The notes beneath the pieces were generated by a model. The model was not told where the DNA came from. It saw only the letters and a list, made by a program, of their open reading frames with translations, and ran no database searches. Both the position numbers and the translations under genes were made by a program. DNA of 32,000 nucleotides from Nanoarchaeum equitans Kin4-M (GTDB lineage Archaea; Nanobdellota; Nanobdellia; Nanobdellales; Nanoarchaeaceae): contig AE017199.1 in assembly GCA_000008085.1 (NCBI GenBank), positions 420,001-452,000 on the forward strand, given 5' to 3'. Numbering within the stretch: position 1 is the stretch's first letter; each line of letters opens with the position of its first letter. Below are positions 6,944 through 30,592 of this stretch, piece after piece.

Positions 6944-6993
6944 ATATTTCGGTATCGATATTATTTATAAACACACTATTGATATTTTCAACA

Positions 6994-7401
6994 ATGGCTA
7001 AGGAATTCAGATACAAGGGATATACTTTACAAGAATTAGAGCAAATGTCTTTAGAGGAATTAGCTAAAATAATGCCTGCAAGGCAAAGGAGAACCTTATT
7101 GAGAAGGCTAAAGTTTGGATGGAGTGACCAACAAAAGAAGCTATTCAAGAAAATATTGTTAGCAAAAGAAGGTAAATACAAAAAACCAATAAAAACCCAC
7201 GCTAGAAACACAATAATATTGCCATTTATGGTTGGTGTTACAGTACATGTCTACAATGGAAAAGAATATGTCCCAGTTCAAATAAAACCAGAGATGATAG
7301 GCCATTATTTAGGGGAATTCAGCTTTACTACTAAGAGACCCAAGCACAGCGCCCCAGGTATAGGTGCAACAAGGTCTAGCGCGCACGTATCTAAGAAGTA
7401 A
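6994..7401 (+). CDS. rps19: 30S ribosomal protein S19 (uS19)
   Basis: [67 protein letters not shown] is the canonical uS19 core. The ORF opens at TTG 6979; ATG 6994 (MAKEFRYKG) is the more likely start. Confidence 0.95.
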
Positions 7402-7404
7402 AAT

Positions 7405-7413
7405 TTTTTAAAT
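7405..7413 (+). promoter_or_regulatory. TATA/box-A element of tRNA-Arg (TTTTTAAAT), ending 20 nt before G1
   Basis: TTTTTAAAT, then 19 nt, then G7433, which is mature tRNA position 1. The same box and spacing occur at the tRNA-Val, tRNA-Glu 5' half and sRNA genes. Confidence 0.7.
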
Positions 7414-7432
7414 AATATTTTTATCCAACTCT

Positions 7433-7506
7433 GGGCCCGTAGCTCAGCTTGGTAGAGCGGCGGCCTCCTAAGCCGTAGGTCGCGGGTTCGAATCCCGCCG
7501 GGCCCG
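7433..7506 (+). tRNA. tRNA-Arg (anticodon CCU), no encoded CCA
   Basis: Manual cloverleaf: GGGCCCG UA GCUC AGCUUGGUA GAGC G GCGGC CUCCUAA GCCGU AGGUC GCGGG UUCGAAU CCCGC CGGGCCC G. The next bases are GAA, so no CCA is encoded. Confidence 0.95.
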
Positions 7507-7511
7507 GAATA

Positions 7512-7520
7512 TTTTTAAAC
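7512..7520 (+). promoter_or_regulatory. TATA/box-A element (TTTTTAAAC) of the H/ACA-like sRNA
   Basis: TTTTTAAAC, then 19 nt, then G7540, the first base of the lower stem. The spacing is identical to that of the tRNA genes. Confidence 0.55.
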
Positions 7521-7539
7521 TCTTATATAAATATACGCT

Positions 7540-7599
7540 GCCCCGCTTGCCATGGTCGGCATGACAAAAAATGAATGCCGATCCTCCGGCGGGGCTACA
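7540..7599 (+). ncRNA. Candidate single-hairpin H/ACA box guide sRNA
   Basis: This is a GC-rich island in AT-rich DNA. The lower stem pairs 7540-7547 with 7588-7595 (GCCCCGCU/GGCGGGGC). The internal loop is 7548-7554 / 7583-7587. The upper stem pairs 7555-7562 with 7575-7582. The apical loop GACAAAAAAUGA can form tandem G.A pairs. An ACA box lies at 7597-7599, 14 nt from the top of the 3' pocket strand, followed by UUUGUUU. The pocket is complementary to 16S positions 13338-13350 of this window. Confidence 0.6.
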
Positions 7600-8287
7600 T
7601 TTGTTTCGCTAATAAATAAGTTTCCAAATATTTTTTCATCTTTTCCGCGATCTCTTTATCGATTTTTTCTATTTCTTCTATAGAGATTTCTTCAGGGGAT
7701 TTAAACTCTATTATATCTGGTATCTCGGCATCTGGTTTTAGTATTGTAACATGTATGCCTGCTACACCAGGTTTCAAATATGCTATGTTAAATGCCCTAT
7801 CCAATTCGAATTGGCCTATTGTTCCGGTTTTTCTTAGATTGCCGGCTTTGAAACGCCATGTTTTCCCTCTTTGTCCGGATAGCCTACCAGCAATTACTAT
7901 CTCTGCTCCTATAGCACCAGCATTCATTATTGTTTCTAAATATCTTTGTGCTAACCTTCTATAGGCTCTTATGTTTCTTTCTATACCCATGGCTAACCTT
8001 TCAGCAATGACATGTGCATCTAAATTGGGATTTTCTATGGGTAATACTTCTATTACTGGTTTTTCTAACCCGAATTTCAATTCTAATAGTTTAGCCAAAT
8101 GGGCTTTTCTCTCTTCACTAATCATCTTTGGTCTGGCAGAATAAATTATTACTCTATTAACTATAGGGGTTTGTCTTATTATTACTTTAGATACATTAGC
8201 GCCCCTTAAGTATAGCCTAATAAATTCCTGGCTAAATACTGTAAGTTTTGCATTTTGGATGAATTTCCTAATAACTTTGGATGCCAT
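7595..8287 (-). CDS. rps3: 30S ribosomal protein S3 (uS3)
   Basis: KH and S3-C pattern: ...VIIRQTPIVNRVIIYSARPKMI...AIGAEIVIAGRLSGQRGKTWRFKAGNLRKTG...AGIHVTILKPD. The ORF opens at TTG 8305. ATG 8287 (MASKVIRKF) lies 20 nt from the TATAAAAT box ending at 8307, so I prefer it. Confidence 0.93.
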   Translation of the reverse strand: MASKVIRKFIQNAKLTVFSQEFIRLYLRGANVSKVIIRQTPIVNRVIIYSARPKMISEERKAHLAKLLELKFGLEKPVIEVLPIENPNLDAHVIAERLAMGIERNIRAYRRLAQRYLETIMNAGAIGAEIVIAGRLSGQRGKTWRFKAGNLRKTGTIGQFELDRAFNIAYLKPGVAGIHVTILKPDAEIPDIIEFKSPEEISIEEIEKIDKEIAEKMKKYLETYLLAKQM

Positions 8288-8381
8288 TTGTAAAGCTTTT
8301 TGCAATATTTTATAAATTCACACCTGTTATTACCACTATCTCTTAATAAACATTTTTAAATAATAGATATATTTTTTACCT

Positions 8382-12324: not shown

Positions 12325-13826
<1,502 letters not shown>

Positions 13827-15676: not shown

Positions 15677-16618
15677 ATGTTCCGTATAAGTAGGACAAGC
15701 TTTAAGCCATTAGACAAACAATGGGACGTTATAATAATTGGAGGGGGGCCAGCAGGGGTTGTGGCTGGTTTATATAGCGCTAGGTATGGACTTAAAACAT
15801 TACTAATATCGCCAGATAAAGGAGGAATGTTAACAGAAGCATCTTTTATAGAGAATTACCCCGGGTTCATATCGATTTCTGGTCCAGATTTAGCGGAAAG
15901 GCTATTCGAGCAATATGAAAAAAATGGGGGACATTATTTAAAAGACAAAGTAAGTGATATTAAAAAGGATAAAAACTTTATTGTAATTACCGAAGGTGGT
16001 TACGAATTGGAAGCGAAAGCAATTATATTAGCAACAGGCTCCAGGAGAAGGAAATTAAATGTGAAAGGGGAAAACCTACCAGGGGTATCCTATTGCGCTG
16101 AATGTGATGCTCCATTATTTAAAGGGAAAACTGTTGCCGTCGTTGGGGGTGGTAACACAGCTTTCCATGACGCTTTAGTTTTATCTAATTATGCAAATAA
16201 AGTTTATCTAATTCATAGAAGAGACCAATTTAGGGCAGAAAGTTACTTAGTTGAAAATGCAAAGAAAAAAGATAACATAGAGTTTATATTAAATAGTGTA
16301 GTAAAAGAAATAAGAGGACAAAACAAAGTTGAATCCATTATAGTGCAAGATAAAGAAGGCAATACAAAAGAGCTAAAAGTAGATGGGGTTTTTGTTGCTA
16401 TTGGTATGGAAACAAACATAGAATTAGCTAAAAAATTAGGAGTACAACTAGACGAGAGAGGAAAAATAATAGTCGATAGATGTCAAAGAACTAATATACA
16501 ATATGTATATGCTGCAGGTAACATTACTAACAATTGTTGCGATTTAGATCAAATAGTTACATCTATGGCACAAGGCGCAATTGCTGCTAAATCCGCTTAT
16601 GAAGATTTGCTAAAATAG
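15677..16618 (+). CDS. trxB: Thioredoxin reductase (FAD/NAD(P)-dependent pyridine nucleotide-disulfide oxidoreductase)
   Basis: It has DVIIIGGGPAGVVAGLYSARYG (FAD site), the redox-active CAECD (CxxC), VAVVGGGNTAFHDAL (NAD(P)H site) and YAAGNIT. The TATAAAG box ends at 15657, 20 nt before the ATG. Confidence 0.93.
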   Translation: MFRISRTSFKPLDKQWDVIIIGGGPAGVVAGLYSARYGLKTLLISPDKGGMLTEASFIENYPGFISISGPDLAERLFEQYEKNGGHYLKDKVSDIKKDKNFIVITEGGYELEAKAIILATGSRRRKLNVKGENLPGVSYCAECDAPLFKGKTVAVVGGGNTAFHDALVLSNYANKVYLIHRRDQFRAESYLVENAKKKDNIEFILNSVVKEIRGQNKVESIIVQDKEGNTKELKVDGVFVAIGMETNIELAKKLGVQLDERGKIIVDRCQRTNIQYVYAAGNITNNCCDLDQIVTSMAQGAIAAKSAYEDLLK

Positions 16619-16673
16619 CCGGGGCAGTGGGATCGAAAACCCCGTATGCTAGACCTGGCTACACCACGGGGGC
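16617..16673 (-). tRNA. Split tRNA gene: tRNA-Glu(UUC) 5' half (positions 1-37, 16673->16634) plus a GC-rich 3' pairing tail (16633->16617)
   Basis: The minus strand reads GCCCCCG UG GUGU AGCCAGGUCUA GCAU A CGGGG UUUUCG, then AUCCCACUGCCCCGGCU AUUUU. There is no 3' anticodon-stem strand, variable loop or T arm. The TTTTTAAAT box lies 20 nt upstream of G1. Confidence 0.85.
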
Positions 16674-16692
16674 TAGAGTAAAATTAGAGAGC

Positions 16693-16701
16693 ATTTAAAA
16701 A
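16693..16701 (-). promoter_or_regulatory. TATA/box-A element (TTTTTAAAT) of the tRNA-Glu 5' half
   Basis: On the minus strand: TTTTTAAAT, then 19 nt (GCTCTCTAATTTTACTCTA), then G16673, which is position 1. Confidence 0.7.
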
Positions 16702-29824: not shown

Positions 29825-30592
29825 ATGAGAATTAGGTTGCCTTTGTATAAACCTATTAAAGAAGTGGCAGAAGATTATTATAACAAAGCCAAAAAAATTA
29901 AAGAAAAAATTGAAAGAGCCAAAGCTTTGTTAAATGAAGAACTAAAAAAAGAAGAAAGAAAAAAGAAAGAAATAAAAAAGGAATGGTTTATGAAGTATAG
30001 ATTTACTTTTACTGAAAGCGGTTTTTTAGTTATTGGAGGAAAGGATGCTAACCAAAATGAAAGAATAATGAAAGTTTATAGAAAGGATGGCGATTTGGTA
30101 TTCCATGCCGATATACATGGGGCACCATTCGCTTTAATGTTATTGAATAACCCCAATGCAGATAGCGTTGAAGAAGTTATAGAAAAATATAAAATAACGG
30201 AAACCGATTTAATGCAAGCAGCAGGTTTAAGTGCTGTATATTCTAAAGCATGGCAAGAAGGCTTAGCTTCGATAGATGTTTTCTATGTTTTGGGCAAGCA
30301 AATCTCTAAAAAAGCTCCTTCTGGAGAATATCTAAAGCATGGTTCCTTTATGGTTTATGGCAAAAAACATTATATTAGGGTGCCTTTGAGATTATACATA
30401 GTAGAAAAAGAAAAGGTCTATGCTGTGCCTTCCATTTATAATGGGGACAAATACATAGAATTAATTCCTGGCGATATTAAGAAAGAAAAGATAGCGAAAA
30501 AAATTGCAGAATTATTAAATGTTAGCGAAGATTACATAAAATCGCTTTTGCCTTCAGGTTATTTCAGAATTACCAAGATTAAAAATATTTGA
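29825..30592 (+). CDS. NFACT-R (DUF814) domain protein: C-terminal half of an Rqc2/FbpA/NEMF-type protein (255 aa)
   Basis: A coiled-coil N-terminus is followed by FLVIGGKDANQNERIMKVYRKDGDLVFHADIHGAPFALM, the DUF814/NFACT-R signature. The NFACT-N domain is not present in the ORF. Confidence 0.72.
   Translation: MRIRLPLYKPIKEVAEDYYNKAKKIKEKIERAKALLNEELKKEERKKKEIKKEWFMKYRFTFTESGFLVIGGKDANQNERIMKVYRKDGDLVFHADIHGAPFALMLLNNPNADSVEEVIEKYKITETDLMQAAGLSAVYSKAWQEGLASIDVFYVLGKQISKKAPSGEYLKHGSFMVYGKKHYIRVPLRLYIVEKEKVYAVPSIYNGDKYIELIPGDIKKEKIAKKIAELLNVSEDYIKSLLPSGYFRITKIKNI

Follow-up and report, generated by a model that had tools for sequence, protein, structure and literature searches.

Results

Features of the Locus and of the Hairpin

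The element under study occupies positions 7540–7599 on the plus strand of a 32,000-nt stretch of Nanoarchaeum equitans DNA, which was analyzed as a whole and is referred to as the window (all positions are those of the window unless stated otherwise); the element corresponds to about NC_005213 427,540–427,599. It comprises 60 bases with the sequence GCCCCGCUUGCCAUGGUCGGCAUGACAAAAAAUGAAUGCCGAUCCUCCGGCGGGGCUACA and is embedded between the gene for tRNA-Arg and the convergent gene for uS3. The features of the locus, together with the predicted substrate in 16S rRNA, are as follows:

7433–7507, plus strand: tRNA-Arg(CCU), context only, 32 nt upstream of 7540
7514–7519, plus strand: box A (TATA-like) TTTAAA, overlapping the T-run 7510–7516 that follows tRNA-Arg
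7540–7547, plus strand: lower stem, 5’-strand, GCCCCGCU, pairing with 7588–7595
7548–7554, plus strand: putative pseudouridylation pocket, 5’-guide strand U GCCAUG, with G7549–G7554 predicted to form six Watson–Crick pairs with 16S CAUGGC (13345–13350)
7555–7562, plus strand: upper (‘GA’) stem, 5’-strand, eight pairs with 7575–7582
7563–7574, plus strand: K-loop GA-CAAAAAAU-GA, putative L7Ae site, with the GA...AUGA arrangement seen in the sequence
7575–7582, plus strand: upper (‘GA’) stem, 3’-strand, pairing with 7555–7562
7583–7587, plus strand: putative pocket, 3’-guide strand CCUCC, predicted to form five Watson–Crick pairs with 16S GGAGG (13338–13342)
7588–7595, plus strand: lower stem, 3’-strand, GGCGGGGC, pairing with 7540–7547
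7597–7599, plus strand: ACA box, preceded by U7596, 14 nt (7583–7596) below the pocket-closing pair
7600–7606, plus strand: T-stretch TTTGTTT, likely terminator, inside the last uS3 codons of the opposite strand
7595–8305, minus strand: uS3 gene NEQ481, convergent, context only; stop codon 7595–7597
13338–13350, plus strand: predicted substrate in 16S rRNA, GGAGG-U13343-G-CAUGGC, a bipartite match; the target U is 16S U1018

With a GC content of 60% versus 34% for the window, the element is indeed GC-rich, as stated in the original prediction, but its description as one of four such islands was too loose, since a high GC content is also found in the 16S gene and in a small number of coding stretches. 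The minimum free energy (MFE) structure obtained with RNAfold consists of the lower stem 7540–7547/7588–7595, an upper stem 7554–7562/7575–7583 and a 12-nt loop, reproducing the stems, internal loop and 12-nt apical loop that had been proposed; its energy of −30.4 kcal/mol (z = −3.5) was equalled by 2 of 200 shuffled sequences. The lower stem measures 8 bp and the upper stem 8 bp (9 in the MFE structure), and the pocket between them has 7 nt on its 5’-side and 5 nt on its 3’-side. The MFE fold closes G7554–C7583, a pair that must open for the proposed guide pairing; the ACA spacing of 14 nt that had been claimed holds with this pair open, but becomes 13 nt with the 9-bp stem.

In the apical loop, G7563·A7574 and A7564·G7573 are predicted to form tandem sheared pairs which, together with the 8-bp upper stem, would amount to 10 stacked layers from the pocket-closing pair to the second G·A. 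The loop had been described as K-loop-like, though not a canonical K-turn. It is a K-loop, but the supposed deviation does not stand: this is a proper K-loop, canonical for archaeal H/ACA RNAs, where K-loops are a recognized alternative to K-turns (PMC2377435, PMC7991803). Counted from the 3’ GA, the ACA follows at a spacing of 22 nt; its position at 7597–7599, after a single U and before TTTGTTT, can be read directly in the sequence, as noted originally. Folding alone is uninformative on the strand, because the minus strand of 7540–7599 forms a hairpin that folds equally well; confined to the plus strand are the GA/GA pairs, the ACA, the box A and the guide complementarity. A C/D box reading of the element was rejected, as its sequence contains neither RUGAUGA nor CUGA boxes.

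Promoter, Terminator and Neighboring Genes

The sequence TTTTTAAAC at 7512–7520 includes a TTTAAA that begins exactly 26 nt upstream of G7540. The distance from TTTAAA to the start is likewise 26 nt at tRNA-Arg (7407 to 7433) and tRNA-Val (24819, minus strand), the two tRNA genes of the window, which confirms the tRNA-like promoter geometry postulated before; the frequency of TTTAAA is 0.0015 per position. A box A TTTAAA located 26 nt upstream of the start is the rule described for N. equitans (Randau 2012). The organism lacks RNase P, and the first base of its tRNAs, at which transcription initiates, is a purine. Because the box A spacing matches that of the tRNA genes, transcription of the element probably starts at G7540.

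T-stretch terminators have been described for the tRNA genes of N. equitans and for its published H/ACA sRNA (Randau 2012). With a promoter geometry matching that of the tRNA genes and a T-run following the ACA, the element has the appearance of an independent transcription unit, in line with the original prediction, and its RNA would be about 60–67 nt long, extending from G7540 to the ACA or into the following U-run. On the minus strand, the uS3 stop codon reaches from the last base of the lower stem into the ACA, of which it covers the first A, so that the claimed overlap of the 3’-end with the convergent rps3 stop was borne out as well.

Descriptor Search Based on Published H/ACA Rules

From published rules, we derived a target-independent descriptor that combines a K-loop, an 8-bp stem plus two G·A pairs (10 layers), a pocket, a 3’-guide of 5–6 nt, a lower stem of 7–9 bp and an ANA at 14–15 nt. 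The 10 layers are counted from the pocket-closing pair to the second G·A (PMC4652768), and the ANA/ACA box lies 14–15 nt 3’ of the pocket-closing pair (PMC2377435, PMC4652768). Applied to both strands of 295 kb, the descriptor matched only 7540–7599 (plus strand), at a chance rate of about 1 per Mb of window-like random sequence, corresponding to ~0.06 matches expected in the window. ‘Productive’ Pyrococcus guides have a GA stem of 10 and an ACA distance of 14 or 15 nt (PMC4652768, PMC2377435); the values of 7540–7599 equal these, and its guide layers, 5 (3’) + 6 (5’), are those of Af190 and Af46. At the sequence level, the features that characterize archaeal H/ACA RNAs (a hairpin with pocket, a 10-layer K-loop, an ACA at 14 nt and a bipartite rRNA match) were all found, and their presence at the correct spacing supports the designation as a putative H/ACA-like guide RNA gene.

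Predicted Pairing with 16S rRNA

With the fold fixed beforehand, 5 + 6 base pairs (11 bp), all of them Watson–Crick, flank U1018-G1019 of 16S rRNA. U1018, whose counterpart in the alignment with E. coli is U1052 of helix 34, represents the only bipartite match of at least 9 bp on either strand of the window, which holds the 16S, not the 23S rRNA. Its context, GAGAGGAGG-U-GC-AUGGCC, is that of the site modified in vitro by Pab19 (psi1017, 5’-UGC-3’; PMC2377435). Matches of at least 11 bp were obtained with 3.3% of shuffled guides and with 1.8% of shuffled 16S sequences; taken alone, the target statistic (~2–3% chance) is modest. A second, weaker match in 16S rRNA, at U266, comprises 10 bp including one G·U and uses another pocket boundary. 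We rejected U266 as a target because pairing in this register would require 11 layers in the GA stem and place the ACA at 13 nt, both described as non-functional (PMC4652768, PMC2377435).

Comparison with Known Guide RNAs

The published H/ACA sRNA of N. equitans (Randau 2012) is a 159-nt RNA with two hairpins at NC_005213 339,411–339,574, between NEQ389 and NEQ392a. The guess that our element might be this single reported H/ACA sRNA was wrong: the two differ in locus (~427,540 for 7540–7599) and sequence. Because the published RNA occupies 339,411–339,574, 7540–7599 is a second H/ACA candidate of N. equitans that is absent from the published list. The two share, besides the organism, a box A, a T-stretch terminator, ACA boxes and a ‘GAUGA’-type L7Ae motif, and the 22 nt between the 3’ GA and the ACA of the candidate compare with 22 and 23 nt in the validated hairpins of the published RNA. 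The latter, encoded ~88 kb away, has K-turns in its two hairpins, in contrast to the single hairpin with a K-loop considered here, and its predicted targets are 16S U234, 23S U614 and 16S U796 rather than 16S U1018. It was detected by RNA-seq with a coverage of 10,900, whereas the candidate is not among the sRNAs of that survey, which lists one H/ACA RNA and has no table entry beyond 403,522. The survey relied on deep small-RNA sequencing with 12 million mapped reads and, by its own account, included a check of every intergenic region; it also points out that libraries of this kind under-represent highly structured RNAs (Randau 2012).

As regards function, the closest counterpart is Pab19/Pfu19/Pho19 of Pyrococcus (Muller et al. 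2008, PMC2377435), which like the candidate is made up of a single H/ACA motif. The substrate of Pab19 is the same helix 34 uridine of 16S rRNA (P. abyssi psi1017) as that predicted for the candidate; both RNAs have a CCUCC core in the 3’-guide and, at the L7Ae site, an ‘AUGA’ in the bulged strand. The 3’ stem strand is preceded by this ‘AUGA’ in Pab19 and the candidate, and likewise in each hairpin of the sRNA already published for N. equitans. The 5’-guide of Pab19, however, is unusually long (15 nt) and pairs further downstream, leaving UGC unpaired, whereas the candidate has the canonical UN geometry with a 6-bp 5’-duplex. Moreover, Pab19 carries a K-turn with an extra helix, an additional 5’-stem-loop and an AUA box, as opposed to the K-loop and ACA of the candidate. 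In a MAFFT alignment of the two, the functional elements did not align. We thus rejected the candidate as a Pab19 orthologue (Thermococcales) on account of the different architecture and the lack of a meaningful alignment; the two are predicted to be isofunctional, with common descent not demonstrable from their sequences.

According to its published description, Af190 of Archaeoglobus fulgidus (Tang et al. 2002, via PMC4652768) resembles the candidate in being a single-hairpin K-loop H/ACA sRNA, and the same description gives it the guide layers 5 (3’) + 6 (5’). Its target is 16S position 1004 (PMC4652768), which may correspond to the predicted U1018. Of the 16S pseudouridines of A. fulgidus, one is also present in P. 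abyssi (Muller 2008; PMC2377435).

Rfam and Homology Searches

An Rfam or descriptor search had been suggested along with the original prediction; the descriptor gave the sole match reported above, but no family of Rfam release 15 matched the locus at gathering thresholds. Among 4227 families, the best sub-threshold match was snoR2/U65 (RF01292), with 21.3 bits, E = 0.046 and a gathering score of 44. The 5’-half of this model aligns with 7540–7599 in a hairpin-pocket-hairpin-ACA layout, and its second hairpin is placed on sequence antisense to the uS3 coding region. Unlike the candidate with its one hairpin and K-loop, snoRNAs of eukaryotes are two-hairpin RNAs that lack a K-loop. Membership in the snoR2/U65 family was rejected in view of the low score and the position of the second hairpin.

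In 53 kb of sequence from relatives, identified by uS3 (64–65% identical) or uS19 (72–87% identical), the locus was not syntenic: the neighborhood is rearranged, and neither tRNA-Arg nor such a hairpin was found there. Application of a relaxed descriptor to the same 53 kb returned AT-rich false positives only. A search of two large public collections, neither of which apparently includes N. equitans, with the guide/K-loop/ACA pattern gave 73 primary-sequence matches (27 in genome contigs, all of them bacterial records, and 46 in metagenome contigs). All lacked the helices, the best of the 73 having 6/8 and 5/8 pairs in the two, and we regard these matches as chance hits. Over the sRNA, all public N. 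equitans assemblies and cluster members differ by indel errors only and so provide no natural variation for comparison, although they apparently represent one strain.

Discussion

We demonstrated here the fold of a compact element of N. equitans, the spacing of its motifs, the geometry of its promoter, and that its complementarity to 16S rRNA is unique in the window and where it lies. Judged by its sequence features, 7540–7599 is probably an independently transcribed gene for a single-hairpin H/ACA guide sRNA with 16S U1018 as its predicted target. In the mechanism we propose, the K-loop (GA...AUGA) would bind L7Ae, and the lower stem and the ACA would dock on the PUA domain of Cbf5, itself in complex with Nop10 and Gar1. 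Upon opening of G7554–C7583, CCUCC would pair with GGAGG and GCCAUG with CAUGGC of 16S rRNA, such that U1018 and G1019 would stay unpaired at the Cbf5 active site, and U1018, the equivalent of E. coli U1052 in the A-site segment of helix 34, would be isomerized to pseudouridine. Transcription, protein binding and catalysis are steps that we infer for the candidate RNA. Of the machinery, N. equitans has one published H/ACA sRNA and the COG0130 pseudouridine synthase gene NEQ454, COG0130 being a group that we take to be that of TruB/Cbf5.

We regard it as unlikely that the RNA is a genuine H/ACA sRNA whose match to U1018 is coincidental, its real or additional target residing in 23S rRNA or a tRNA, or the RNA being an orphan guide. 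In favor of such a coincidence, one may point to the 2–3% of controls that yield an 11-bp match by chance, to the weaker match at U266, and to Pyrococcus guides, which often have several predicted sites, some of which are used (PMC2377435). Yet the U1018 match is entirely Watson–Crick, falls into the ‘productive’ register that had been chosen beforehand and concerns a site that belongs to the small number of H/ACA targets documented in archaeal 16S rRNA, while U266 would demand a stem and an ACA distance reported as non-functional.

We consider it highly improbable that 7540–7599 is only a GC-rich hairpin at a convergent junction, acting as the 3’-end or terminator of the uS3 mRNA or of tRNA-Arg read-through and having no guide role. 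The hairpin is equally stable on both strands, and its minus-strand loop gives rise to a T6 run 25–30 nt after the uS3 stop, where a terminator-like site was flagged; in archaea, however, oligo-T is enough for termination and a hairpin is not needed. Such a function would also be in line with RNA-seq reporting no RNA at the locus (Randau 2012), but it leaves unexplained the plus-strand features, namely a GA/AUGA K-loop at exactly 10 layers, an ACA at 14 nt, a box A at −26 and an 11-bp complementarity to a known pseudouridylation site; furthermore, no such hairpin follows uS3 in the sequences obtained from relatives. Finally, we give hardly any credence to a silent or barely expressed H/ACA gene remnant, intact in sequence but out of use: its absence from the published list despite 12 million mapped reads and the failure to recover a homologue would fit, but the helices are perfect, a strongly reduced genome of 0.49 Mb still carries promoter, K-loop, ACA and both guide strands in intact form, the element is unchanged in public N. 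equitans assemblies apart from indel errors (though apparently from the same strain), and libraries like those of the RNA-seq survey under-sample highly structured RNAs (Randau 2012).

A broader reading, which we put forward tentatively and with considerable doubt, would add to the guide RNA gene three ideas at once: compact dual use of a single 90-bp stretch, an ancient helix 34 trait and a blind spot of RNA-seq surveys. As to dual use, the T-run terminating tRNA-Arg may also serve as the box A of the sRNA, the sRNA terminator may sit within the last uS3 codons, and the A6 of the K-loop may be, on the other strand, the T6 terminator of the uS3 mRNA. As to the trait, the helix 34 pseudouridine would have been kept by non-homologous guides in Thermococcales, Nanoarchaeota and possibly Archaeoglobus. 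If this broader reading were true, the helix 34 pseudouridine would be among the modifications that a minimal ribosome cannot give up, and RNA-seq surveys would systematically miss short, very stable H/ACA hairpins.

The finding of a probable guide RNA gene is incremental, and no new kind of system is involved. The Pyrococcus-derived rules (a 10-layer GA stem and 14–15 nt to the ACA) appear to carry over to Nanoarchaeota, and structural rules can recover a candidate gene that annotation based on RNA-seq does not list. N. equitans is a reference case for the limits of genome and RNA-processing shrinkage, with a published inventory of one H/ACA sRNA that a second guide, if confirmed, would extend. 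The target would then constitute the first pseudouridine prediction for the decoding-centre region of N. equitans 16S rRNA that is specific and easy to test, and the helix 34 site that Pab19 guides in Pyrococcus would have been retained in a genome of 0.49 Mb.

Fold and structural signature of the candidate sRNA

The hairpin at 7540–7599 was confirmed: the two stems followed by a U and an ACA, originally read from the sequence alone, were reproduced in sequence and fold with a folding energy of −30.4 kcal/mol (z = −3.5; 2 of 200 shuffles were equally stable). The lower stem (7540–7547/7588–7595) comprises seven G-C pairs and one U·G pair, the upper stem of the MFE structure (7554–7562/7575–7583) carries the loop GACAAAAAAUGA, and the ACA directly follows U7596. 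The reverse strand folds equally well, so that strand assignment rests on motifs confined to the plus strand. Window coordinates equal NC_005213 coordinates minus 420,000, anchored at the poly-A/G stretch at 449,944 (Randau 2012; window 29,944), which places the candidate at ~427,540–427,599; this purine-rich A/G low-complexity stretch (window 29944–29979) is described there as a source of poly-A mapping artefacts.

Features of the locus (window coordinates)
6979–7401, uS19 (NEQ480) ORF
7433–7507, plus strand, tRNA-Arg(CCU), upstream of the candidate sRNA
7540–7599, plus strand, candidate sRNA
7595–7597, minus strand, uS3 stop codon, on the 3' side of the candidate sRNA
7595–8305, minus strand, uS3 (NEQ481) ORF, 100% identity to uS3
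12326–13825, 16S rRNA gene

As predicted, the 3' end of the candidate RNA overlaps the stop codon of the convergent rps3 (uS3) gene. Annotation of the uS3 start codon is inconsistent, the longest ORF having 236 aa from a TTG (GenBank NEQ481) versus 230 aa in the UniProt and metagenome versions.

The proposed descriptor search was built from published archaeal H/ACA rules (PMC4652768, PMC2377435), blind to any target. It demanded an 8-bp upper stem with a GA...GA cap (10 layers from the pocket-closing to the second sheared pair), a 3' guide of 5–6 nt, a 5' guide of 5–12 nt, a lower stem of 7–9 bp and an ANA 14–15 nt past the closing pair. In 295 kb searched on both strands, made up of the window, contigs of relatives and 27 unrelated loci from bacteria, 7540–7599 (+) was the sole match. 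Taken alone, this match is suggestive but not decisive, since random sequence with the dinucleotide statistics of the window yields about one match per Mb, i.e. ~0.06 per window and roughly one per whole genome. In the selected fold, G7555·U7582 closes the pocket while G7554-C7583 of the MFE structure is open; the GA stem then has 10 layers, the 3' guide 5 nt, and the ACA lies at the anticipated archaeal spacing of 14 nt, all of them values of productive Pyrococcus guides (PMC4652768).

Predicted target in 16S rRNA

With the target register preset by structure (3' guide from 7583, 5' guide up to 7554), a single bipartite match of at least 9 bp was found in the whole window on both strands, at 13338–13350 inside the 16S rRNA gene. 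Here, GGAGG pairs with C7583–C7587 and CAUGGC with G7549–G7554, leaving U13343 and G13344 unpaired (11 Watson-Crick pairs); matches of at least 11 bp, G·U allowed, arose with 3.3% of shuffled guides and in 1.8% of shuffled 16S sequences. The predicted target uridine is 16S U1018, aligned to E. coli U1052 in helix 34. Independently of our calculation, Pab19, an H/ACA sRNA of Pyrococcus abyssi, was reported to modify 16S U1017 in vitro (Muller et al. 2008); the published alignment gives its substrate as ...GAGAGGAGGUGCAUGGCCGCCGUC and has CCUCC within its 3' guide, such that the predicted site and the core of the 3' guide coincide in both RNAs. H/ACA guides have been assigned to no more than four sites in P. 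abyssi 16S rRNA, three via CMCT mapping and U1017 in vitro only. That the best match under a preset register falls on one of these four is the strongest single argument for the guide reading. Alternatively or in addition, the guide may act on 23S rRNA.

Transcription signals

N. equitans tRNA promoters have a box A TTTAAA 26 nt upstream of the start, and T-stretches serve as terminators; the published H/ACA sRNA of this organism carries the same elements (Randau 2012). The expected correspondence to tRNA genes was recovered: TTTAAA (frequency 0.0015 per position) starts exactly 26 nt upstream of G7540, the distance also seen at tRNA-Arg and tRNA-Val, and TTTGTTT directly follows the ACA. In N. 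equitans, which has no RNase P, tRNAs start where transcription does; by analogy, the promoter geometry would fit an RNA whose 5' end is the first nucleotide of the lower stem. The sRNA table of the 2012 survey has no entry past 403,522, and absence of the candidate from this survey counts against expression.

The T-run after tRNA-Arg (TATTTTT) overlaps the box A of the candidate, and this 10-nt stretch (window 7510–7519) appears to combine the terminator of the one gene with the putative promoter of the other. Elsewhere, a GC-rich island at 16618–16674 (minus) resembles the 5' half of a split tRNA (GCCCCCGUGGUGUAGCCAGG...) and continues into a GC-rich tail, with TTTAAA at 16695–16700, ~26–27 nt upstream; neither ARAGORN nor Rfam made a call for this island.

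On the minus strand, the K-loop A6 (7565–7570) reads as T6, 25–30 nt past the uS3 stop, and a small hairpin (7577–7590) followed by a T-run was flagged as terminator-like. The locus could be conceived as a pure terminator hairpin devoid of any guide role, but this would leave the K-loop, ACA, box A and guide complementarity, all restricted to the plus strand, unexplained. The T6 may still aid termination of uS3 mRNA, and the sRNA gene may thus double as the uS3 terminator. A silent relic of an H/ACA gene is possible but unlikely, as its signals are intact in a strongly reduced genome.

Relatives and other assemblies

The element is identical in other public N. equitans assemblies. L085, a public contig (JGI 3300014713), contains the same uS3-sRNA-tRNA-Arg block, with a different coding sequence abutting the tRNA 5' end and no box A there; several other assemblies end within the tRNA-Arg T-arm. 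The L085 junction is probably a repeat-induced chimera or an assembly break, though it may represent a rearranged variant.

Among the nearest relatives available (a single MAG plus several contigs from vent metagenomes; uS3 64–65% and uS19 72–87% identical), the surroundings of both genes differ, with neither tRNA-Arg nor the hairpin close by. The two genes lie on separate contigs with unlike neighbours (L001 and L031 of GCA_054016815.1, L002, L003, L032–L034), for example L19e beside uS19, or a 3,934-aa ORF overlapping the uS3 end; L034 keeps the classical L22-uS3 pair beside uS19, the latter being encoded on the other strand. A convergent order of uS19 and uS3 is specific to N. equitans. Two collection-wide scans with a pattern of GCCAUG, GA, (A)UGA, CCUCC and ACA at fixed spacing hit 27 and 46 loci, none with the helices, and returned no homologue, N. 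equitans itself evidently being absent from both collections; these helix-less matches serve as a negative control.

Relation to known H/ACA guides

Rfam assigned no family at threshold to the locus; the best sub-threshold match, an H/ACA snoRNA, echoes the general layout only. In layout, the candidate corresponds to canonical archaeal single-hairpin H/ACA guides with a K-loop, such as Archaeoglobus Af190 and Af46. Pab19, although predicted to be isofunctional, is not alignable in sequence and differs by its long 5' guide, unpaired UGC, K-turn with an extra helix, 5' stem-loop and AUA.

The original prediction also considered that the candidate might be the single published N. equitans H/ACA sRNA. 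This is ruled out by locus, form and targets: the published RNA (159 nt, 339,411–339,574, between NEQ389 and NEQ392a) has two hairpins and other predicted targets. Between the 3' GA and the ACA, the candidate has 22 nt, versus 22 and 23 nt in the two hairpins of this validated RNA. With maximal Watson-Crick pairing, these two hairpins have GA stems of 8 and 9 layers and the ACA at 16 nt, outside the 'productive' 10/14–15 rule unless one or two non-canonical layers are added, whereas the candidate conforms to it unadjusted. Full-text literature searches turned up no further description of H/ACA RNAs from N. equitans.

Taken together, these sequence-based data support the interpretation of 7540–7599 as an H/ACA guide. 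We consider it likely to be functional, and are somewhat less confident that U1018 would be its sole target. New in this analysis are the prediction of 16S U1018 as a specific substrate and the recognition of a second, hitherto unlisted H/ACA candidate of an already known RNA kind in N. equitans.
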